DNA from: Ruminococcus flavefaciens
GTDB lineage: Bacteria; Bacillota; Clostridia; Oscillospirales; Ruminococcaceae
Assembly: GCA_902766595.1 (NCBI GenBank)
Contig: CACXEJ010000072.1
Location: forward strand, 4,709-68,708
Reading direction: 5' to 3'
DNA length: 64,000 nt
The notes under the pieces are model-generated. The model worked only from the letters and a program-made list of their open reading frames with translations, searched no databases and had not been told where the DNA came from. Position 1 is the stretch's first letter. Each line of letters starts with the position of its first letter. This document shows, piece by piece, positions 1 to 10,180 of this stretch. The position numbers and the translations under genes are program-made.

Positions 1-2100
1 GGACTCGGAAGTCTCCTCGGCGGAGGCGGCGGCGGCTCGGACTCCGGTTCAGCCCCCGAAGTAACCGGCGGTTATGTTGCAAGCGCTGAGACTGCTGTCA
101 ATACCGCAGTAGCAGACGGCGCCCGTGCAAAGAGGACTGTTATCAAGGGAAACAATCAGGATACCGTTACACTTATGGTGTATATGTGCGGAACCGATCT
201 TGAGTCCAAGTACGGTATGGCTTCTTCCGATATGGAGGAAATGAGACAGGCAAGTATGTCCTGCAGCGACAACGTCAACATAATAGTATACACAGGCGGC
301 TGTTCAAACTGGAAAACCAGCGGCATCAGCTCCTCAGTGAACCAGATATACCAGATCAATGGCGGCAGCATCAAAAATCTCGTCAGTGACGACGGCAGCA
401 AGCCTATGACGGAAGCTGGCACTCTTTCCTCGTTTATCAAGTATTGCAGCTCCAACTATCCTGCAAACAGAAACGAACTCATCTTCTGGGATCACGGCGG
501 CGGTTCAGTAAGCGGCTACGGCTACGATGAAAAATACAAGAAGAGCGGTTCAATGGACCTTGCGCACATCAGTCAGGCACTCAAGCAGGGGGGAGTAAAG
601 TTCGATTTTATCGGCTTTGACGCCTGCCTTATGGCAACTGCTGAAAACGCACTTATGCTCGACGAGTACGCGGACTACCTCATTGCTTCCGAAGAGACAG
701 AGCCCGGTATCGGCTGGTACTACACAAACTGGCTCTCCGAATTCGGAAAGAACACTTCAATGTCCACACTCGACATCGGCAAGAACATCATTGACGATTT
801 CGTTTCAGAATGTGCAAAGAAGTGCAGAGGTCAGAAGACTACGCTTTCTATCATCGACCTTGCAGAATTCGCAAAGACAGTTCCGCAGGATCTCTCAGAC
901 TTCTCAAAGTCGGTAAGCAGAAAGATAAGCAACAGCGAATATAAAGAGCTCTCAGACGCAAGATATGCTACAAGAGAGTTTGCCGAAAGCTCAAAGATAG
1001 ATCAGGTCGATCTCGTCAACCTCGCTGTGAATATGGGAACTCCCGAGGGCGAAAAGCTCGCTGAGTCCCTGAAAAAGGCAGTAAAGTACAACCGCACCTC
1101 GACCAATATGACAAACGCCTACGGCGTGTCGATATACTTCCCGTACAAGCGTACATCTTATGTTGATCCGGCTTGCAGCACATACACACAGATAGGTATG
1201 GACTCCGATTATGCCGAGTGTATCCGTCAGTTTGCAAAGCTCGAGACCAGCGGTCAGATCGCAGCAGGCGGTTCATCATCACCGCTCAGTACACTCTTCG
1301 GACTCGGCGGTTCATCCGGTTCTTCCGGAAGCGGCGCTGATGTCATCGGACAGCTTCTCGGTTCATTTATGAGCGGCGCGTCCGGAAAGAGCATCGACGG
1401 TCTTGATAAGAGCAACACCGGATTTATGTCCAGTGTCGATGACGATAAAGCTGCCGAGTATGTCTCTCAGCACTACTTTGATCCCAAGAACCTCGTCTGG
1501 GAAGATGATGACGGCAAGTACACTATGGAGCTCCCCGAAGAACAGTGGAATATGGTTCACGCCATAGATATGAATATGTTCTACGATGACGGCAAAGGCT
1601 ACATCGACCTCGGTATCGACAATCTCTTCAAGCGTGACGGCGATACGCTCATTGCCGACACGGATAAGGACTGGGTATCTGTAAACGGACAACCGGTCGC
1701 TTACTACCACACAGACTCCATAAAGGACGATGACGGAAAAAGAGTGGATATGGGCTATTCTCCTGCAATGCTCAACGGCGACAGAGTCAACCTTATAATT
1801 GTTTTTGAGGACGGTGACGGATACATCGCCGGTGCTTCAACTGATTATGTAAACGGTGAGACCGAAACTTCTGCGAAGAATTCCTCCGCTCTGACTCCCG
1901 GAGATAAGATAGACTTCATCTGCGACTACTACTCATACGATATGCAGTATCAGAACTCCTACTATCTCGGTGAAACAATAACAGTGACTGATGATATGAA
2001 GGTGACCAACGAGTCCGTAGGTGACGGTGAAGCTGTGATAACCTACCTGTTTACCGACATCTACAATCAGGAATACTGGTCAGAAGCTATCAAGAAATAA
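1..2100 (+). CDS. Clostripain-family (C11) cysteine peptidase, 5' end outside the window
   Basis: Frame is open from base 1 (GLGSLLGGGGGG...) through the listed ATG at 175; motifs MVYMCGTDLES, WDHGGG (catalytic His) and FDACLM (catalytic Cys). Confidence 0.85.
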   Translation, partial: GLGSLLGGGGGGSDSGSAPEVTGGYVASAETAVNTAVADGARAKRTVIKGNNQDTVTLMVYMCGTDLESKYGMASSDMEEMRQASMSCSDNVNIIVYTGGCSNWKTSGISSSVNQIYQINGGSIKNLVSDDGSKPMTEAGTLSSFIKYCSSNYPANRNELIFWDHGGGSVSGYGYDEKYKKSGSMDLAHISQALKQGGVKFDFIGFDACLMATAENALMLDEYADYLIASEETEPGIGWYYTNWLSEFGKNTSMSTLDIGKNIIDDFVSECAKKCRGQKTTLSIIDLAEFAKTVPQDLSDFSKSVSRKISNSEYKELSDARYATREFAESSKIDQVDLVNLAVNMGTPEGEKLAESLKKAVKYNRTSTNMTNAYGVSIYFPYKRTSYVDPACSTYTQIGMDSDYAECIRQFAKLETSGQIAAGGSSSPLSTLFGLGGSSGSSGSGADVIGQLLGSFMSGASGKSIDGLDKSNTGFMSSVDDDKAAEYVSQHYFDPKNLVWEDDDGKYTMELPEEQWNMVHAIDMNMFYDDGKGYIDLGIDNLFKRDGDTLIADTDKDWVSVNGQPVAYYHTDSIKDDDGKRVDMGYSPAMLNGDRVNLIIVFEDGDGYIAGASTDYVNGETETSAKNSSALTPGDKIDFICDYYSYDMQYQNSYYLGETITVTDDMKVTNESVGDGEAVITYLFTDIYNQEYWSEAIKK

Positions 2101-2112
2101 GAGGGTACTCCT

Positions 2113-2745
2113 ATGGCTTTCGATTTCAAAAAGGAATTCAAGGAATTCTATATGCCCAAGAATAAACCGTCGATCGTAAATTTCCCCAAGGCTAATTACA
2201 TAGCTGTAAGAGGTAAGGGCGATCCGAATGAACCGGACGGAGATTACCAGAAAGCTATCTCCGTTTTGTATGCTGTTGCTTACACGCTGAAAATGAGCTG
2301 CAAAACCGACTATAAAATCCCGGGCTTCTTTGAGTATGTAGTACCTCCGCTTGAAGGCTTCTGGCGGCAGGAAGGCGTTGAAGGCTTTGACTATAACAAC
2401 AAAGCCGGCTGCTGCTGGATCTCTGTCATCAGACTTCCGGACTTCATAACCGAAAAAGACTTCAGATGGGCAGTAGAAACTGCTGCAAAAAAGAAGAAGC
2501 TCGACTGTTCATCTGCGGAATTCCTTACGATAGACGAGGGAATGTGCGTTCAGGTAATGCACATCGGCTCATATGATAATGAACCGGAAACAGTAAAAGC
2601 TATGGACGAATTTCTGACCGAGAACGGCTATATAAATGATCTCAGCAGTGAACGTCTGCACCACGAGATTTACCTTTCTGATCCGAGAAAAACTCCGACT
2701 GATAAACTCAAAACTGTTATCAGGCATCCGATAAAAAAGAAATGA
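2113..2745 (+). CDS. GyrI-like small-molecule-binding domain protein
   Basis: Motifs GKGDPN, PPLEGFW, HIGSYD, HHEIYLSDPRK; GAGGG RBS. Confidence 0.8.
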   Translation: MAFDFKKEFKEFYMPKNKPSIVNFPKANYIAVRGKGDPNEPDGDYQKAISVLYAVAYTLKMSCKTDYKIPGFFEYVVPPLEGFWRQEGVEGFDYNNKAGCCWISVIRLPDFITEKDFRWAVETAAKKKKLDCSSAEFLTIDEGMCVQVMHIGSYDNEPETVKAMDEFLTENGYINDLSSERLHHEIYLSDPRKTPTDKLKTVIRHPIKKK

Positions 2746-2753
2746 CCATACTT

Positions 2754-2781
2754 AAACGGGAGTGCGAAAGCACTCCCGTTT
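2754..2781 (+). terminator. Hairpin, probable intrinsic terminator
   Basis: AAACGGGAGTGC-GAAA-GCACTCCCGTTT perfect inverted repeat just after the stop codon. Confidence 0.7.
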
Positions 2782-2821
2782 GAGTAAAATATAAATTTAT
2801 TTCGCAATTACACTTTACCCC

Positions 2822-2850
2822 TTGACAATTATCTGATTTTGTAGTATAAT
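2822..2850 (+). promoter_or_regulatory. Sigma-A promoter of tRNA-Pro
   Basis: TTGACA (2822-2827), 17 bp spacer, TATAAT (2845-2850). Confidence 0.85.
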
Positions 2851-2861
2851 TGTTGTGTTAT

Positions 2862-2938
2862 CGAGGTGTGGCTCAGTTTGGTAGAGTACTACGTTCGGGA
2901 CGTAGGGGCCGCAGGTTCAAATCCTGTCACCTCGACCA
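2862..2938 (+). tRNA. tRNA-Pro (anticodon CGG)
   Basis: Acceptor stem CGAGGTG/CACCTCG, anticodon arm CTACG-TTCGGGA-CGTAG, T-loop GGTTCAAATCC, encoded CCA end. Confidence 0.97.
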
Positions 2939-2945
2939 TGCGGTT

Positions 2946-3082
2946 AGCCACCGCGGGCTTCCACGTTGACGCTCGCGGTGGCTCGCTTTATTTTTACAGA
3001 AAGCTTACTCTGCTTTCACTCACGGCACTATCATCTATTTCGTATAGCCTGCACAGAAGCGCCCGTCACTAATGTGACGGGC
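2946..3082. repeat. tRNA-trailing structured repeat, copy 1
   Basis: TTCCAC-containing hairpin (2946-2983), T-tract, conserved core, distal hairpin GCCCGTCAC-TAAT-GTGACGGGC (3061-3082); core 2982-3035 matches 39018-39071 at 46/54 ungapped positions (counted by hand). Confidence 0.85.
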
Positions 3083-3220
3083 TCAATTTATAATGAATAG
3101 TGAAAAATGTATAAATCACAAGGTTGCTTTTTCCGGACTTCTGAGGTATAATAAAAGTAATAAACAGCCCACACAGGGTGAGATTTCAATGCGGAAATTT
3201 AAAAAGGAGTATAGAGTCTT

Positions 3221-4774
3221 ATGAAATATGAACCGCTGCTGAAGCATCTGCTTAACTATGATGATATTGTCATTCAGGTGCATCACAATCCCGATGCCGA
3301 TGCTATCGCTTCCGGATTTGCACTTTGCCGCTATCTGAAAAAAAACGGCAAAAAGCCGCGCTTTGTTTACGCAGGAGAACGCGAGATCAGCAAGCCAAAT
3401 ATGCTCATTATGCTGAACAAGCTCGGCATTCAGGTCAGTCATATCAAAAACCTGAACGAAAACGGCGCTCTGCCTCAGCTTCTGATCACAGTCGACTGCT
3501 TTCACGGAGAGGGGAATGTCGGCAGCTTTGCGGCGGAAAACATAATCGTCATCGACCACCACCGTCTCCCGAAGGGAAAGGCAGTTCCGGAACACTCGGT
3601 CATAAAGGAGCATTACGGAAGCTGTGCGGCTGTCATCTATGAGCTGTTCAAGGAGGTCGGCTATGACCTCAACGAGGAACAGAACGTTGCAACGGCACTC
3701 TATTACGGCTTGTATATGGACACGGTAGGACTTTCGGAGATCAGTGAGCCTATGGACCGTGAGCTCCGCGATACCGCAAACTATAACAAAGCGCTCATAC
3801 GCCTGCTTTCAAATACCAATCTGACAGAGGAGGAGCTCAGCATTATCGGCAAAACGCTCAGTACCTGCAAATACTACCCGCATCCCGAAAGCTCCGCAGT
3901 TGCGTATGATCCCTCTCTTCCAAAACAGCATACTGCCTACACCATAGCAGACAACTGCGACCCTAATCTCCTCGGCATTATCTCTGATACTCTCATTCAG
4001 GTCGATATGGTTTCAGACTGCGTTGTCTGCTGTCCGTATCATACCGGATACAAGATCTCCGTCCGCACCTGTACGGACTCTGTCAAGGCACCGGATCTTG
4101 CCGCGTTCATTACCTACGGATACGGCGGAGGCGGCGGACATGATAACAAAGCTGGCGGCTGCATCGACTATCAAAGCTCACTGCCGAAGGATATTATGGA
4201 TTTTATTGCCGACCGTGTACGCGATTTCTTCACAAAGCCCGATGTTATTTTTGCCGGCAGGGAGCACCCCGATTTTTCCGGTGCAGAACGCTTCCGGAAA
4301 AAGGAGGTCGTTCTTGGCTATGTACCAACAGCATTGCTCTCGCCGGACGGAGAAGATATCCATATCCGGACGCTTGAGGGTGATATGACTGTGACACCTG
4401 CTCCGGACATCTATCTGATGGTCGGTGTAATAGGAGAGGTTTATCCCATCACGCGCGAGAAATTCGAGAAAAAATATGTCGCATGTGAGGGGACACCTGA
4501 TGTGTCGACATATTACTATCCGCCTTCAGCACGGATCGGTCAGAAAAAAACAGGCAGTCAGCTCTCGGAATATCTGCGCGGGTGCAAAGCCTCCGGAAAC
4601 AGTGAGATACTTGCAGTGAAGCTGAATAATTTTACGAAGCTCTATTCTCTCTGGGATCAGAAGCATTATATGTACGGCAACATCGGGGATTATATGGCTC
4701 ATCCTGCACATGATGCAAACGATCTCTATATCATACGCGGAGATATCTTTGCAATGACCTATGAAAGCTGCTAA
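3221..4774 (+). CDS. DHH/DHHA1 phosphoesterase with two C-terminal TLEG/PGDYG-like domains
   Basis: HHNPDADA, VDC, IDHH, MDT and GGGGGH..AGG motifs; C-terminal FRKK...TLEGDM...GVIGEVYP...FEKKY and GDYMA...DLYII..DIFAMTY; AAGGAG RBS. Confidence 0.8.
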   Translation: MKYEPLLKHLLNYDDIVIQVHHNPDADAIASGFALCRYLKKNGKKPRFVYAGEREISKPNMLIMLNKLGIQVSHIKNLNENGALPQLLITVDCFHGEGNVGSFAAENIIVIDHHRLPKGKAVPEHSVIKEHYGSCAAVIYELFKEVGYDLNEEQNVATALYYGLYMDTVGLSEISEPMDRELRDTANYNKALIRLLSNTNLTEEELSIIGKTLSTCKYYPHPESSAVAYDPSLPKQHTAYTIADNCDPNLLGIISDTLIQVDMVSDCVVCCPYHTGYKISVRTCTDSVKAPDLAAFITYGYGGGGGHDNKAGGCIDYQSSLPKDIMDFIADRVRDFFTKPDVIFAGREHPDFSGAERFRKKEVVLGYVPTALLSPDGEDIHIRTLEGDMTVTPAPDIYLMVGVIGEVYPITREKFEKKYVACEGTPDVSTYYYPPSARIGQKKTGSQLSEYLRGCKASGNSEILAVKLNNFTKLYSLWDQKHYMYGNIGDYMAHPAHDANDLYIIRGDIFAMTYESC

Positions 4775-4792
4775 TCACATAACCCAAAATCT

Positions 4793-4823
4793 GCGCTCCC
4801 TTCCACGGGGGGCGCTTTATTTA
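4793..4823 (+). terminator. Intrinsic terminator with TTCCAC loop
   Basis: GCGCTCCC-TTCCAC-GGGGGGCGC followed by TTTATTTA; near-identical to 38988-39009. Confidence 0.7.
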
Positions 4824-4899
4824 TCAAAATATCATTAAAGAGGTTGCAATACATCGAAAAATATGCTATTATTTAGAAAAACGATAAAGGAGTCCGACT

Positions 4900-6153
4900 A
4901 TGCGATCTATAATATCCAAACTAACCGACAGCGAATTCTGCCTGCTCGAACAGCTTGCATATCTTGATGAAGACGTAGCAAAGGCTGCTTCAGACGAAGA
5001 AAACGAAGTTGATTTCTACAAGATCAGCGATACAAACAAGGGACAAACTATTGCTCAGATACTCAGCAAATTCGATGAAAAAGCTCTCGGGAACCTCAGA
5101 ACCAACAAGAGCTCCGTGTGTGACGCACAGATCAGCGGAGTCGAGTGGGCAAGGATAATCAAGTTCCTGAAAAACGGAAAGACTGCCTCTCTCGTGCTTG
5201 AGGCTCTTATGCTTGACGAGACTGGCTATCACTCCGTCACAGATAAAGCCGGCAGGAGCTATAATTATCCGCTGGCACTTTGTTTTTCTGACGGCACAGG
5301 CAAAAACGAAAAAGCTATTGTCGTTTTCAAGGGAACGACAGGTCCGCAAGAATGGGCAGACAATGTAAGAGCAGCAGCTCAGTTCGACACGCCTCCCCAG
5401 AGAAGAGCGCTTGAATTTGTTGAAAAAACAGCTGAACGTTTTGGAAGCATCTCGGTAATAGGCCACTCAAAAGGCAGCAACAAGGCAATGTATACAGCGC
5501 TTATGAGTGATAATGTAGAGAGATGTGTGTGCTTCGACGGACAGGGCTTTTCGCGCATATTCCTTCAAACACCCAAGGTCGCTGAACGAATAAAAAAGAG
5601 AGCCTCTCTCATCAAGAACTACTCTCTTACCGGTGATTTCGTGCATATACTCCTGTATCAGATACCCGGCTCAAATCAGTTATTCTGTAAGGGCTACTGC
5701 GTTGACTCGGTAGGCGAGAACCACTCTCCGAACTCTTTCTTCCAGCAGTCATCAGACGGCGAAGATGAAAGTATAAATTCGGAGACAATAATGGTCGGCA
5801 ATACTTCATACATAATCCCTCGCTTCGAGACTGCAAGCGAGAACGAAAGTATCGAAACTCTCCATTCGTTCGTGGACTACCTACTTTCGCGTGATGAGAA
5901 TGTCAACGGAATAATAGATTACCTTGCAACGATACTGCCGATAGTCATAGTCGGCGAAGACGAATCCGGAAATAAATACGACTCACGAGGCAAGCTCAAA
6001 GCAGTGTTCGATGATACGGACAGTCTTACAGCCATTATAACGAACCTGATTGCTTTCGTAAAGGAAAACAAGCTCAACGGCGAATATATTGACTCACTTC
6101 TTGGCGCACTCGGAGTCGATGATGCAGGATTATTCTCGCTCCTGTTAAAATAA
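4900..6153 (+). CDS. DUF2974/Mbeg1-like alpha/beta-hydrolase (lipase)
   Basis: VVFKGT...WADN, nucleophile elbow GHSKG, FDGQGF, DFVH, NHSPNSF; AAGGAG RBS. Confidence 0.75.
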   Translation: MRSIISKLTDSEFCLLEQLAYLDEDVAKAASDEENEVDFYKISDTNKGQTIAQILSKFDEKALGNLRTNKSSVCDAQISGVEWARIIKFLKNGKTASLVLEALMLDETGYHSVTDKAGRSYNYPLALCFSDGTGKNEKAIVVFKGTTGPQEWADNVRAAAQFDTPPQRRALEFVEKTAERFGSISVIGHSKGSNKAMYTALMSDNVERCVCFDGQGFSRIFLQTPKVAERIKKRASLIKNYSLTGDFVHILLYQIPGSNQLFCKGYCVDSVGENHSPNSFFQQSSDGEDESINSETIMVGNTSYIIPRFETASENESIETLHSFVDYLLSRDENVNGIIDYLATILPIVIVGEDESGNKYDSRGKLKAVFDDTDSLTAIITNLIAFVKENKLNGEYIDSLLGALGVDDAGLFSLLLK

Positions 6154-6192
6154 ACGAACGCCCTCTGTCATTGATGATTTAGGAGGATAATT

Positions 6193-7689
6193 ATGAAGAT
6201 AAATCGCATAGTACCGGCACTTCTTGCTGTAATGACAGCATTAAATATTTCCGGTTTAAGTACATCGTCAGCGTCCATACATAATGAAAGTTCTTCCGGT
6301 ATAATGGGCGATGTAAATGCCGACGGCGAGTTCAGTATAGCAGATATTGTACTGTTTCAGAAATGGCTGCTTGCAGCTCCCGGAGCAGAGCTTACAAACT
6401 GGAAAAGCGCCGACTTCTGCGAGGACGGCAAACTCAACGTTTTTGACCTTTGTCTGATGAAGCGCCGTTACATTGATAAAAACTCCGGCACAAAGCTGGT
6501 TTGGTCAGATGAATTCAGCGGCGACTCCCTTGATATGACCAAATGGAGCTACGAGCTCGGAAACTGGAAGCTCGATGCTGACGGAAACTATATCACAAAC
6601 GGCTGGGGCAACAACGAACAGGAGTTCTACACCAACTCAAACGCCTCTGTGAAGAACGGTATCCTCACTATCGCCGCCCGTAAGGAGCACTACTCTGATC
6701 CTGTACAGGGCGAATACGAGTACACCTCCGCACGTCTGAGCTCGCAGCATCTGTTCTCGACCTGCGGCGGACGTATAGAGGTAAGGGCTCGCTGCGACTC
6801 CGGAAAATCTCTCTGGCCTGCAATATGGATGCTGCCCGAGGACAGTGTTTACGGCGGCTGGGCAGCTTCCGGCGAGATCGACATAATGGAAGGGTGGGGA
6901 AGTAACCCCGAGAAAATATGCGGCACTATCCATTTCGGTGACGTATGGCCCAACAACACATACCTGACCAACAACTATAAATTCCCGCAGGGCGACTCCA
7001 GCGAAAACTGGCATACCTACGCAGTTGAATGGGAGCCGGACGAGATACGCTGGTACGTCGATGACACGCTTTACAGCAGGCAGTCTGACTGGTATTCCGT
7101 AAATCACAAGTATCCTGCTCCATTCAATCAGAACTTCTACATAATACTGAACCTTGCAGTCGGCGGCGCATTTGACGGCATCGACGGTATGTACGCTGAT
7201 CCTTCCACATTTGCAAACGGCGAGAAGGATTTCGACATAGACTATGTCCGGGTATACGACCTTGATAAGCCCTTTGAGCCGACTCCCGTGACCTCTCTGC
7301 CGCTTGAGTCCTATATTGAGGGAGCAAATGCTGCTCTCGTCAACAAGGACGGCGAGACAGTTGTCACGATCAACGAAGTCGGTACACTGGAATATGGTGT
7401 AATGGGGCTTAACCGCGGCAACAAGGTCCACGCCGGCGAGACTCACACCTTATCATTTGATGTTTCGTCAAGTGCAGAGCGCGAGATAGTTGTGACTGCC
7501 GAGGACCCTGTATACACTCGCTATCTGAATGAAAAACTGACGATAACTCCTGATAAAAAGCATTACTCATTCGATGTGACTTTTGATGCCGATATGTCAG
7601 TTGACCTCAAATTCCAGCTTGGAAACATCGGAAATGCTTCTTCGATCGGAAGCCACACTGTGACTCTGAGCAATATTGAGTGGAAATAG
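6193..7689 (+). CDS. Secreted dockerin + GH16 beta-1,3-glucanase + CBM4-like domain
   Basis: Signal peptide; dockerin GDVNADGEFSIAD...DFCEDGKLNVFD; WSDEF, WPAIWMLP, catalytic EIDIME, ILNLAVGG. Confidence 0.9.
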   Translation: MKINRIVPALLAVMTALNISGLSTSSASIHNESSSGIMGDVNADGEFSIADIVLFQKWLLAAPGAELTNWKSADFCEDGKLNVFDLCLMKRRYIDKNSGTKLVWSDEFSGDSLDMTKWSYELGNWKLDADGNYITNGWGNNEQEFYTNSNASVKNGILTIAARKEHYSDPVQGEYEYTSARLSSQHLFSTCGGRIEVRARCDSGKSLWPAIWMLPEDSVYGGWAASGEIDIMEGWGSNPEKICGTIHFGDVWPNNTYLTNNYKFPQGDSSENWHTYAVEWEPDEIRWYVDDTLYSRQSDWYSVNHKYPAPFNQNFYIILNLAVGGAFDGIDGMYADPSTFANGEKDFDIDYVRVYDLDKPFEPTPVTSLPLESYIEGANAALVNKDGETVVTINEVGTLEYGVMGLNRGNKVHAGETHTLSFDVSSSAEREIVVTAEDPVYTRYLNEKLTITPDKKHYSFDVTFDADMSVDLKFQLGNIGNASSIGSHTVTLSNIEWK

Positions 7690-7766
7690 TCGTTCCGGCA
7701 CTTGCTATTTTTTCAGCGATGTGTTATAATAGTAATGTTGTATTATAATACTCTCAGGAGGCAATT

Positions 7767-8573
7767 ATGGATAATTACAGTATTGGATTTATAGGTGCCG
7801 GAAATATGGGCACTGCTATTATGAAGGGCATTGCTTCGAGCAGCCTTTCCAACAAGGTAACACTCTACACATTTGATCCCGACAGCTCAAAGGTCGAAGC
7901 TCTCAGCCAGTTTGGCATCAAAGCCTGCTCAAGCGAGTCGGAGCTCACAGCTGCCTGCAAGTATGTATTCCTTGCAGTAAAGCCGCAGATCATCGAAGGC
8001 GTTCTCAAGGCAGCTGCTCCCGGAGCTTCCAAGGATACAGTTTTCGTATCTATTGCTGCCGGAATTACAGACGAATTTGTTGCGAGCCAGACTCTCCCCG
8101 AAGCAAAGGTAATACTCGTTATGCCCAACACTCCGCTTCTTCTCGGTGAAGGCGCTTCCGCTCTTTCACGCAACGACAGAGTTTCTGATGAGGAATTCGA
8201 GTTTATCCTCAATATCTTCAGGATCTGCGGCAAGGCAGCTGTTATCCCCAAGGACAAGATGAAGGAGATAATCGCTATTAACGGAAGCAGTCCTGCGTTT
8301 ATCTACCTTTACGCAAAGGGCTTCATCGACTACGCTGCATCTGTTGGCATCGACGCTGAAGCTGCTACCGAGCTGTTCTCGCAGAGCCTTATCGGTTCAG
8401 CAAAGATGATAACAGACTCCGGTAAAACTATCGACGAGCTCATAAAAATGGTCTCCTCACCCGGAGGAACTACACTTGCAGGGCTTGACCGCCTCTACGA
8501 GGGAAATCTTACAGATACTGTAAAGAAGTGCTGCGAGAGCTGCACCAACAGAGCCTACGAGCTCTCCAAGTAA
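7767..8573 (+). CDS. proC: Pyrroline-5-carboxylate reductase
   Basis: GFIGAGNMG, LAVKPQ, MPNTP, GSSPAF, VSSPGGTT; TTGCTA-17-TATAAT promoter at 7702-7730. Confidence 0.95.
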   Translation: MDNYSIGFIGAGNMGTAIMKGIASSSLSNKVTLYTFDPDSSKVEALSQFGIKACSSESELTAACKYVFLAVKPQIIEGVLKAAAPGASKDTVFVSIAAGITDEFVASQTLPEAKVILVMPNTPLLLGEGASALSRNDRVSDEEFEFILNIFRICGKAAVIPKDKMKEIIAINGSSPAFIYLYAKGFIDYAASVGIDAEAATELFSQSLIGSAKMITDSGKTIDELIKMVSSPGGTTLAGLDRLYEGNLTDTVKKCCESCTNRAYELSK

Positions 8574-8629
8574 GCTGTTCTAACCGGACAGGTTGTCGCA
8601 TATCCTTGAAACAGAAAGGATGATGCGAT

Positions 8630-9226
8630 ATGAAACGTATAGGAACTCTCACTGCAGCCCAGAGCAGAAGGGCTTTCACAATGCTGTTATTCGCATTCAC
8701 AGCGATAGGCGTCATAGCCGGATCAGTATACGGAGCAGCACATCCTGAAAACGGATCATTCTGGCTGCACCAGTATTTCGTACCGGCTCCGCTGAACAGT
8801 CCTATCCCGGCACTGATGAAGGTCACTTTTCTCAGTTCGGCACTCTTTATTGCTGCCGCTTATCTGACAGGACTATTTGCTTTTGGACAACCCTTCGGGT
8901 TCTGTCTGCTGATATACCGCGGCTTTGGTATGGGCTTCTCATCTGCTCTGACTTACACAAGCCTAGGTATACACGCACTGCCGCGGATAACGCTTCTGCT
9001 CCTGCCGAGAGCGCTCGCAGTCACAGTTTTATCCGTACTCGCAGTAAGAGAGCTTATGCGTTCTTCAGGAAATCTCCTGCGTTCACTTACAAGAGGGGAG
9101 ATAAGGGACGACAAGCGTTCCGACCTGAAGCATTACACTCTGAAATTTGCTGTACTGCTCCTGCTGTCGCTATTGATCTCTTTGGCGGACGGAGCGGTAT
9201 TTGCAGTTTTTGCCCGACTCAACTGA
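8630..9226 (+). CDS. spoIIM: Stage II sporulation protein M-like membrane protein
   Basis: About 5 TM helices with G.PF...LLIYRGFGMGFS and LLLP pattern; sigma-E-like element upstream. Confidence 0.55.
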   Translation: MKRIGTLTAAQSRRAFTMLLFAFTAIGVIAGSVYGAAHPENGSFWLHQYFVPAPLNSPIPALMKVTFLSSALFIAAAYLTGLFAFGQPFGFCLLIYRGFGMGFSSALTYTSLGIHALPRITLLLLPRALAVTVLSVLAVRELMRSSGNLLRSLTRGEIRDDKRSDLKHYTLKFAVLLLLSLLISLADGAVFAVFARLN

Positions 9227-9235
9227 ACTGGAGGA

Positions 9236-10180
9236 ATGTTAAAATTGGGTCTGTTTTTTAATGATTATGAAAGCGCAGGCTCGGGAATTTCAAAGAATGC
9301 CCCCAAGAAAAAGGGATTTCGATTGTTTCTGGATATTCTCGGCAGAAAGTTCTGGCAGCTTGCCGGACTAAATCTCCTGTACTTCCTATTTTTTACGCCT
9401 CTTCTGCTGACACTGACAGCGATAAGGTATATCCCTAACAATAATGCAGCGATCGCCGTAATAATCCTGCTGCTGCTTACATTTGCGGTTACTATCGGTC
9501 CGGCAACGGCTGGTATGACCAAGGTAATACGCTGCTACCTCATTGAAAAGCACACGTTCGTGACCCGTGACTTTTTCAAGGGATTCAGGGAAAACTTCAA
9601 AAAAGCAGCCGTAATAGGCTTCATAGACTGCGTTATCGCACTTTCAGCGTTCGCAGCCGTCAACGTCTATCCGGCACTTGCGGTACAGATGAACTCAAAT
9701 CTGATGTATGTGCCGCTCGTCATAACTTACAGCTTTGCGCTCGTGGTCCTGATGATGAACTACTACATCTACCTGATGCTCGTTGCCACGAACCTTTCAC
9801 TGAAAAATCTCATCAAAAACTCATTTGCACTCGCTTTCGTGTCGATGAAGAACAACCTCGTAACAACGCTTATGATCGGCGGAATACTTGCACTTCTCCT
9901 TCCAATAATGAGATTTGCTATGCCGCTGTTTATGACAATACTGCCGTTTTATCCGGCAGCCTTCATCTCATTTGTTATCTGCTTCAACAGCTACCCGGTA
10001 ATACAGAAATACGTCATCAATCCCTACTATGAGAGCATAGGAAAGATCAACCCCGAGCTCACTAACTTTGAGGACGACGACGATGACGAAACTGGTGAAG
10101 AAACTATTTGTGAGGATATGGGCGGCAAGGAAAAGCCCATTGAAAAGCGTAAAAAAGGAAAGGGAAGAAGAATCTCCTGA
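9236..10180 (+). CDS. YesL/DUF624-family membrane protein
   Basis: LNLLY, TIGPATAG, DFFKGFRENFKKA; multiple TM helices and an acidic tail. Confidence 0.7.
   Translation: MLKLGLFFNDYESAGSGISKNAPKKKGFRLFLDILGRKFWQLAGLNLLYFLFFTPLLLTLTAIRYIPNNNAAIAVIILLLLTFAVTIGPATAGMTKVIRCYLIEKHTFVTRDFFKGFRENFKKAAVIGFIDCVIALSAFAAVNVYPALAVQMNSNLMYVPLVITYSFALVVLMMNYYIYLMLVATNLSLKNLIKNSFALAFVSMKNNLVTTLMIGGILALLLPIMRFAMPLFMTILPFYPAAFISFVICFNSYPVIQKYVINPYYESIGKINPELTNFEDDDDDETGEETICEDMGGKEKPIEKRKKGKGRRIS

Follow-up and report, generated by a model that had tools for sequence, protein, structure and literature searches.

P0001 is a 517 amino acid (aa) protein encoded in a 64,000 nucleotide (nt) stretch of DNA from Ruminococcus flavefaciens (GenBank assembly GCA_902766595.1, contig CACXEJ010000072.1, positions 4,709 to 68,708 of the forward strand), which is called the window in the following. 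It combines a catalytic half of the DHH-DHHA1 type with a C-terminal PGDYG-type domain and probably belongs to an undescribed TIR signalling pathway. The p0001 reading frame is complete and stop-free across 517 codons, starts behind a ribosome-binding site and ends in front of a strong intrinsic terminator (Table 1). Since the gene has its own terminator, it is regarded as monocistronic. It is best read as a phosphodiesterase that is soluble, resides in the cytoplasm and belongs to the stand-alone DHH-DHHA1 enzymes. Its homologs in public records are named Ruminococcus or Oscillospiraceae.

Table 1. Features of the P0001 gene, of its surroundings in the window and of the unlinked TIR locus in the same genome (window positions unless a contig is named).
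Feature	Position	Strand	Evidence or remark
Ribosome-binding site, AAAGGAG-type	3203..3209	+	11 nt before the ATG of P0001; read from sequence
Open reading frame (ORF) P0001, complete, 517 aa	3221..4774	+	Predicted DHH-DHHA1 phosphodiesterase fused to PGDYG-type domain
DHH domain, residues 16-163	3266..3709	+	Pfam PF01368, expectation value (E) 7.7e-18, 65.4 bits (cut-off 28.1)
DHHA1 domain, residues 241-323	3941..4189	+	Pfam PF02272, E 1e-3, 20 bits (below cut-off of 25.9)
Linker strand and N-terminal beta-hairpin extension, residues 345-376, with conserved K360 and G366	4253..4348	+	AlphaFold model strands (fragment residues 12-16 and 21-25); alignment conservation
PGDYG-superfamily domain, residues 377-517 (TLEG half, insert, GDY half)	4349..4771	+	hhalign, AlphaFold, PHROG, fold matches
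Intrinsic terminator, strong	4793..4815	+	9 base pair (bp) stem, 7 GC pairs, T run; 19 nt past the P0001 stop codon
Promoter-like site of the downstream Mbeg1-like gene	4844-4872		
Clostripain-family peptidase gene	1-2100		Upstream of P0001
GyrI-like gene	2113-2745		Upstream of P0001
tRNA-Pro(CGG)	2862..2938	+	ARAGORN; upstream context, outside the P0001 gene
Mbeg1-like alpha/beta hydrolase gene	4900-6153		Downstream of P0001; PF11187, E 1.7e-11; own promoter-like site
Glycoside hydrolase family 16 (GH16) enzyme gene	6193-7689		After the Mbeg1-like gene; type I dockerin and carbohydrate-binding module (CBM) 4/9
TIR gene and gene for the 654 aa protein	contig C73 (locus L086) 3909-9262	-	

The catalytic half contains all motifs of its enzyme class. 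The metal-binding DHH residues H21, D25, D27, D92, D112-H113-H114 and D167 are invariant in an alignment of 37 homologs; in P0001, D167 sits just C-terminal of the matched DHH domain. All 37 family members match PF02272 (best E 8.4e-7), and the GGGH motif (residues 304-307 of P0001) is invariant among them. The AlphaFold model of full-length P0001 has a mean predicted local distance difference test score (pLDDT) of 87. Over about 350 residues, it matches solved folds in Foldseek with E 1e-16 to 1e-15 and target template modelling (TM) scores of 0.60-0.67. These folds are the GdpP catalytic domain, Thermotoga TmPDE, Rv2837c, NrnA/Pde2 and Borrelia DhhP. By sequence alone, the nearest relatives of the DHH half are the family II pyrophosphatases (E 1e-8). 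However, the second domain of P0001 is a DHHA1 domain with GGGH and not the pyrophosphatase-type DHHA2. Because of this domain and the overall fold, P0001 is grouped with the nucleotide/nanoRNA phosphodiesterases and not with the pyrophosphatases. Motifs and model identify the catalytic half as a GdpP/NrnA/Pde2-type DHH-DHHA1 enzyme with an intact motif set and a predicted activity. GdpP, Pde2/NrnA, TmPDE and Rv2837c cleave cyclic di-AMP (c-di-AMP), 5'-phosphoadenylyl-adenosine (pApA), 3'-phosphoadenosine-5'-phosphate (pAp) and short RNAs. A 14-residue insertion (ESSAVAYDPSLPKQH) between DHH and DHHA1 (window 3890-3934, residues 224-238) is found in the clade of P0001 and missing in more distant members of the family. 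No other stretch of the model is predicted with less confidence (pLDDT 65-75).

The C-terminal region is composed of two halves. The TLEG half comprises residues 356-428 (nt 4286-4504) with the motifs FRKKEVV..IRTLEGD..GVIGEVYP..REKFEKKY, the GDY half residues 440-517 (nt 4538-4771) with the motifs GNIGDYMA..DLYIIRGDIFAMTY. The halves are separated by an insert, located between residues 430 and 456 and roughly 20-25 residues long. More than 1000 full-length homologs retain the region, and a further 279 representative proteins are matches to this region by itself. The conservation of the TLEG and GDY motifs exceeds chance by far. In the 37-homolog alignment K360, R383, E386, D388, E406, Y408, W478, D490, D501, Y503 and Y514 are conserved. 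Residues 345-517 have no sequence match in Pfam, NCBIfam or PDB, and a profile search of PDB sequences yielded no meaningful match either. They match PHROG 419 (phrog_419, E 2.6e-8) and PHROG 4502. Neither P0001 nor fragments of it match the Pfam family PGDYG (PF14083) even at E 10; ten of the 37 family members match it weakly (best E 0.0029).

The relationship to PGDYG was assessed by aligning the profile of the C-terminal family to six bona fide PF14083 domains (63.9-98 bits, or E 5e-94, on PF14083). These were taken from longer relatives that carry such a domain after the C-terminal region (P0139, P0186, P0235 and others). In hhalign the two align end to end over 113 columns with a probability of 98.8% and E 5.6e-16. 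In this alignment, the TLEG half pairs with the first half of the canonical domain and the GDY half with its second. Since both halves together align to a single canonical PGDYG domain, the region is one domain and not two modules. The halves show a weak mutual likeness (hhalign probability 43%, E 2.4e-4). When the C-terminal region was modelled alone with 43 relatives in AlphaFold, an all-beta structure was obtained (pLDDT 92.5). It is composed of two small beta-barrels, each of which ends in a short helix and a strand. As judged from profile and model, the C-terminal region is one expanded PGDYG-superfamily domain of two SH3-like halves. A Foldseek comparison of the C-terminal model with the PDB gave nothing at E <= 1e-3, which does not imply a novel fold, and VIA-align against 48,161 chains found only SH3/Tudor-like barrels (Z <= 4.6).

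Matches also exist among predicted structures. Among the viral predicted structures of BFVD, there are five matches to the whole region (E 1.5e-7 to 3e-4, query TM 0.53-0.63) and half-region matches to phage proteins named PGDYG. A 172 aa cluster in the ESM Atlas, which is partly phage-derived, reaches TM 0.71 both ways. The evidence for stand-alone forms of the domain consists of these fold matches in BFVD and the ESM Atlas. Two seemingly stand-alone proteins of about 165 aa, P0127 and P0137, were rejected as a separate architecture; their starts lie only 15-31 nt away from the ends of contigs, so that they may be incomplete. No canonical PF14083 domain above cut-off was found in 301 genomes of the same class. 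A tblastn search of 50,697 phage DNA records with the C-terminal region detected two unverified human faecal virome scaffolds named 'Bacteriophage sp.' and no stand-alone phage protein. The scaffolds, L100 (MT836910.1, 1560-4414) and L101 (MT836060.1, 2927-5149), carry full DHH-PGDYG genes, one of them directly behind a gene for a 451 aa TIR protein. Either a phage or mobile element bears the TIR-DHH pair, or these scaffolds are of bacterial origin.

An initial annotation, made from the letters of the window, had listed an intact DHH-DHHA1 catalytic set, which is borne out by the Pfam matches, the invariant motifs and the GdpP/NrnA-like fold. The C-terminal motifs it quoted at about 4292-4771 are present in the translation at this place. 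Its assignment of these motifs to the PGDYG type agrees with the hhalign result and the weak PF14083 matches, and its statement that such domains occur in phage proteins with phrog_419 and the BFVD entries named PGDYG. The two TLEG/PGDYG-like modules that it proposed have to be replaced by a single PGDYG-type domain.

In gut and rumen Clostridia, genes for membrane TIR proteins are the usual neighbours of the family. The full architecture of about 500 aa is found in more than 1000 proteins, and a relative is encoded in at least 595 species genomes. ORFs were called in 79 species-level loci with a full-length homolog and their neighbours clustered. Two neighbour clusters dominate, proteins of about 1000-1135 aa in 39 loci and proteins of about 480-560 aa in 17 loci, both nearly always adjacent and on the same strand. 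According to Pfam, both have an N-terminal TIR domain. As outer domains, the TIR partners carry two WD40-type propellers (the larger proteins, 39 loci), DUF6273 (17 loci) or, in one case, NPCBM. With a TIR profile built from the partners, a TIR gene was detected directly adjacent to the DHH gene in 53 of the 79 loci, in 51 of these on the same strand. In three more loci it lies within three genes, and two further loci are cut by contig ends. The TIR gene is located upstream of the DHH gene in some loci and downstream in others. Most gaps are below about 80 bp, a few reach about 230 bp, and some of the genes overlap. The TIR-less loci have ordinary neighbours, e.g. transporters, GH2, PtsI and RadA. 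No CBASS (cyclic-oligonucleotide-based antiphage signalling system) genes were seen adjoining any homolog. The signal-regulated phosphodiesterase that the initial annotation had proposed fits this link to TIR genes, which lay outside its view.

Nearly all TIR partners have exactly one hydrophobic helix right behind the TIR domain. Most of them are therefore predicted to have a Toll-like-receptor layout with the TIR domain inside the cell, one membrane helix and the sensor outside. The Glu at the catalytic TIR position (W-x-x-x-E helix) is kept in 96% of 55 partner sequences. It is invariant (E90) in a second TIR alignment, which includes the TIR of this genome. PADLOC assigned only weak ThsB or SAVED-TIR matches to the TIR domains. 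Co-folding of residues 1-195 of a partner TIR with the C-terminal domain scored 0.00, which is evidence neither way. Proteins of about 99 aa are encoded directly beside the DHH-PGDYG gene in three loci (L017 7699-7998, L020 9489-9773, L035 6783-7085) and cluster together; the one from L017 is a single RyR domain (PF02026, E 3e-35). Besides the TIR and DHH proteins, these small RyR-domain proteins may thus be a third component that recurs in the TIR-linked set.

The architecture survey, a search with residues 345-517 alone, revealed the same domain on other enzymes. Four proteins with a REC domain and a class III cyclase end in a PGDYG-type domain (P0208, P0217, P0222, P0256). Two of them, P0217 and P0256, were looked up, and in both a gene for a soluble 302 aa TIR protein lies directly upstream. 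P0128 combines DHH, the PGDYG-type domain and GGDEF, and its divergent neighbour encodes a 932 aa TIR protein. P0250 (689 aa) unites TIR, DHH-DHHA1 and PGDYG-type domain in one chain. In addition, P0177 (432 aa) has a seven-transmembrane region followed by the domain, and P0221 (3743 aa) contains numerous PGDYG repeats together with one annexin repeat and a kinase domain of the zeta-toxin/AAA_33 kind. This means, the TIR link follows the PGDYG-type domain and not the DHH part. The enzymes in the TIR-linked fusions (DHH, class III cyclase, GGDEF) all make or break nucleotide messengers, as expected for the partners of a ligand-sensing input domain. Since the domain accompanies TIR genes irrespective of the enzyme to which it is joined, and these enzymes all serve messenger turnover, it is proposed to be the receiver of a TIR-derived signal.

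The family is distributed sporadically. Of 200 genomes sampled evenly from the same bacterial family, 10 contain the domain; the two sampled from the same genus are not among them. Eight of the ten carriers contain a TIR_2 gene compared to 37 of 190 non-carriers (Fisher p 1.2e-4, with kin not independent). In five of the ten, a TIR gene lies on the same contig within about 1-2.5 kilobases of the domain match. The gene itself is 84-89% identical at the nt level in close relatives, from about 20 nt before the ATG to the stop codon. With one exception, L004, their flanking DNA shares nothing with the window. In L004 (3748-8643, compared to window 64-4775) the same tRNA-Pro and clostripain-type gene stand beside the DHH gene in inverted orientation, which suggests a rearrangement at the tRNA-Pro locus. 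Because it is found in differing flanks, the DHH-PGDYG gene behaves as an accessory cassette.

The genome under study (82% complete) has one copy of the DHH-PGDYG gene and exactly one TIR gene. The latter is located on contig C73, unlinked to P0001, and encodes a 1129 aa TIR-helix-propeller protein. It overlaps by 4 nt the gene for a 654 aa protein, which has an N-terminal helix and matches the RyR domain weakly. Of the close relatives in which the DHH gene is unlinked, four of four have this pair as well (654 aa protein with 55-74% identity). In five of five relatives with TIR-DHH adjacency, there is one TIR receptor, and no homolog of the 654 aa protein was found. Each compared genome has one DHH-PGDYG enzyme and one TIR receptor, whether or not their genes are linked, and P0001 is the unlinked form. 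In one close relative, the TIR receptor homolog (L098, G203:C32:22334-25756) contains a TGA stop in frame, so that this copy may be a pseudogene. A separate 322 aa DHH protein, encoded on contig C43 of the genome under study, could cover the housekeeping duty of NrnA.

The surroundings of P0001 in the window are ordinary genes: tRNA-Pro, a GyrI-like protein, hydrolases and proC. The dockerin-bearing GH16 enzyme with CBM4/9 (6193-7689) is typical of cellulosomal Ruminococcus. The lipase-like Mbeg1 neighbour was considered as a partner and rejected: no homolog of it recurs among the neighbours in the 79 loci, and both terminator and promoter-like site lie between the two genes. The initial annotation had placed P0001 at a tRNA hotspot next to a lipase gene. 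The tRNA-Pro and the Mbeg1-like gene are indeed there; for a hotspot, there is the one relative L004, and the lipase-like gene does not qualify as a conserved partner.

Together, these data lead to the following proposal. A membrane TIR protein would sense a cue outside the cell with its outward-facing propellers or DUF6273. The TIR domain would then make a small nucleotide derived from nicotinamide adenine dinucleotide (NAD), and the PGDYG-type domain would receive it. Ligand binding would switch or direct the phosphodiesterase and change a nucleotide pool, making the enzyme an output or modulator of the TIR pathway. In this genome, the TIR protein encoded on C73 would act in trans on P0001. 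The chance that P0001 is a GdpP/NrnA-type phosphodiesterase controlled in this way by a TIR-made nucleotide is judged to be about even; ligand, substrate and direction of regulation are putative. A broader version is more tentative and at present doubtful: the PGDYG fold might be an unrecognised receptor domain for TIR-made nucleotides attached to messenger enzymes. The pathway would then reset c-di-AMP, cyclic nucleoside monophosphates or cyclic di-GMP instead of killing the cell, and the many PGDYG proteins that stand alone in phages would act as sponges for this signal.

Several observations weigh against control of P0001 by a TIR-made nucleotide. No TIR gene is found among the genes that flank P0001 in the window, and 21 of the 79 loci, including that of P0001, have none near the homolog. 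The TIR gene of this genome already has a different conserved partner in the 654 aa protein, so the DHH enzyme need not be the effector. The TIR domains, known here from their sequences, may simply consume NAD instead of making a signal. The closest solved folds of the C-terminal domain (best Z 4.6) are SH3/Tudor-like barrels, for which binding of peptides or nucleic acids is better known than binding of small ligands. Furthermore, any defence-island context of the family would be putative, and PADLOC has no model for P0001, for the 654 aa protein or for the Mbeg1-like neighbour, of which the gap at P0001 counts here.

Alternatively, P0001 might terminate a TIR signal. In this case, the DHH-DHHA1 enzyme would degrade the TIR-made nucleotide after its capture by the PGDYG-type domain, while a different protein would be the true effector, in this genome the 654 aa membrane protein. 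A parallel exists in type III CRISPR systems, whose cyclic oligoadenylates are degraded by ring nucleases and a membrane-associated DHH-DHHA1 nuclease. The conserved TIR/654 aa pair in this genome and in all four relatives with an unlinked DHH gene fits such a role, as do the small RyR-domain proteins that adjoin the DHH gene in L017, L020 and L035. In addition, TIR products hold a pyrophosphate bond, and the DHH half is closest in sequence to family II pyrophosphatases. Nevertheless, signal termination is considered rather unlikely: where TIR and DHH genes are adjacent, the DHH enzyme is the only visible partner of the single TIR protein, cyclase and GGDEF fusions of the PGDYG-type domain are outputs and not degraders, and a DHHA1 domain in a fold closest to GdpP/NrnA does not point to a pyrophosphatase.

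A small chance is given to a protein adaptor, i.e. a PGDYG-type domain that binds a protein or peptide (the TIR protein itself or a peptide derived from phage or cell wall) and recruits the phosphodiesterase to the membrane receptor. SH3, Tudor and like small barrels, the only similar solved folds, are typically peptide-binding, and the genetic linkage of the domain to a membrane TIR receptor would be explained. Recruitment to a membrane accords poorly with the linkage of the same domain to soluble 302 aa TIR proteins, and its fusion partners are enzymes that turn over nucleotide messengers. Conserved charged residues (Lys, Arg, Asp, Glu) and aromatic ones (the K360 to Y514 set) would suit a nucleotide pocket, which they do not prove.

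It is less probable still that P0001 is a plain housekeeping enzyme (nanoRNase/pAp phosphatase) whose C-terminal domain is an accessory and for which the TIR neighbourhood of other homologs is meaningless. This copy lies without a TIR neighbour among ordinary genes, and about a quarter of the loci are alike in this respect. However, a housekeeping enzyme would hardly be limited to 10 of the 200 genomes sampled from its bacterial family or have different flanks in nearly every close relative despite 84-89% gene identity; the genome has the separate 322 aa DHH protein, and adjacency to TIR genes in 53 of 79 loci together with a TIR-DHH fusion can hardly be due to chance.

The initial annotation had named Acb4, an anti-CBASS sponge that captures cyclic dinucleotides, as a protein of the same type as the C-terminal modules, and this idea is practically abandoned: beyond the general notion of a small nucleotide-binding domain borne by phages, which have proteins with the C-terminal fold of P0001, nothing speaks for it, family membership is refuted by the lack of any PF13876 match in P0001 (E up to 10) and by an all-beta model with two short helices, and CBASS genes were seen next to none of the homologs. 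Acb4 belongs to PF13876, has a fold (alpha-beta-beta-beta-alpha) similar to double-stranded RNA-binding domains and forms tetramers (PDB 9E4W). Pfam family and fold differ from those of the C-terminal region of P0001, and the likeness is limited to a small domain that also occurs in phages.

Among characterised enzymes, GdpP (5xsp), TmPDE TM1595 (5o25), Rv2837c/CnpB (5cet), NrnA/Pde2 (8iu7, 5j21) and DhhP (9r7o) share with P0001 the two-domain DHH-DHHA1 fold, the metal motifs and GGGH. In contrast to them, P0001, which is only 15-21% identical, has an additional PGDYG-type C-terminal region of 170 residues. The P0001 family is distributed sporadically and not universally, and it is linked to TIR genes. 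The TLEG and PGDY/W motifs are common to P0001, the uncharacterised Pfam family PGDYG of phages and bacteria, and PHROG 419 and 4502. P0001 differs from canonical PGDYG by remaining below any Pfam threshold, by the N-terminal hairpin, by the insert of about 20-25 residues and by the fusion to an enzyme. A literature search on PGDYG, PF14083 and Thoeris plus DHH, which left most subscription journals aside, found no description of the family or the pairing. New here are the one-domain reading of the C-terminus, the fusions with cyclase, GGDEF and TIR, and the pattern of one TIR gene per genome.

Bacterial TIR signalling is known mainly from cytoplasmic defence systems of the Thoeris type, in which effectors switched on by the TIR product arrest or kill the infected cell. 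The P0001 family points to a different wiring, in which membrane-receptor TIR proteins have a recurrent partner that joins a phosphodiesterase of the c-di-AMP/nanoRNA type to PGDYG. If the domain binds the TIR product, a function could be assigned to an uncharacterised Pfam family that is frequent in phages. Moreover, NAD-derived TIR signals would be tied, in abundant Clostridia of gut and rumen, to the networks of classical second messengers, and a new class of phage sponge candidates would emerge. P0001 alone is of smaller value: as an intact unlinked copy, it is a natural case of an enzyme encoded in trans to its presumed TIR partner. Thoeris and the other TIR-signalling defence systems, with ThsB plus an effector, comprise types I-XI and 29 predicted types (Yirmiya et al., bioRxiv 10.64898/2025.12.03.692087). 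The text and four supplements of this December 2025 survey contain no DHH effector and no PGDYG sensor. Like Thoeris, relatives of P0001 form a two-gene unit of a TIR protein and a candidate ligand-binding domain joined to an enzymatic domain, and their distribution is patchy. They differ from Thoeris at the P0001 locus, where the TIR gene is not adjacent, and in the TIR partner, which in this family is a single-pass membrane protein with large outward domains.

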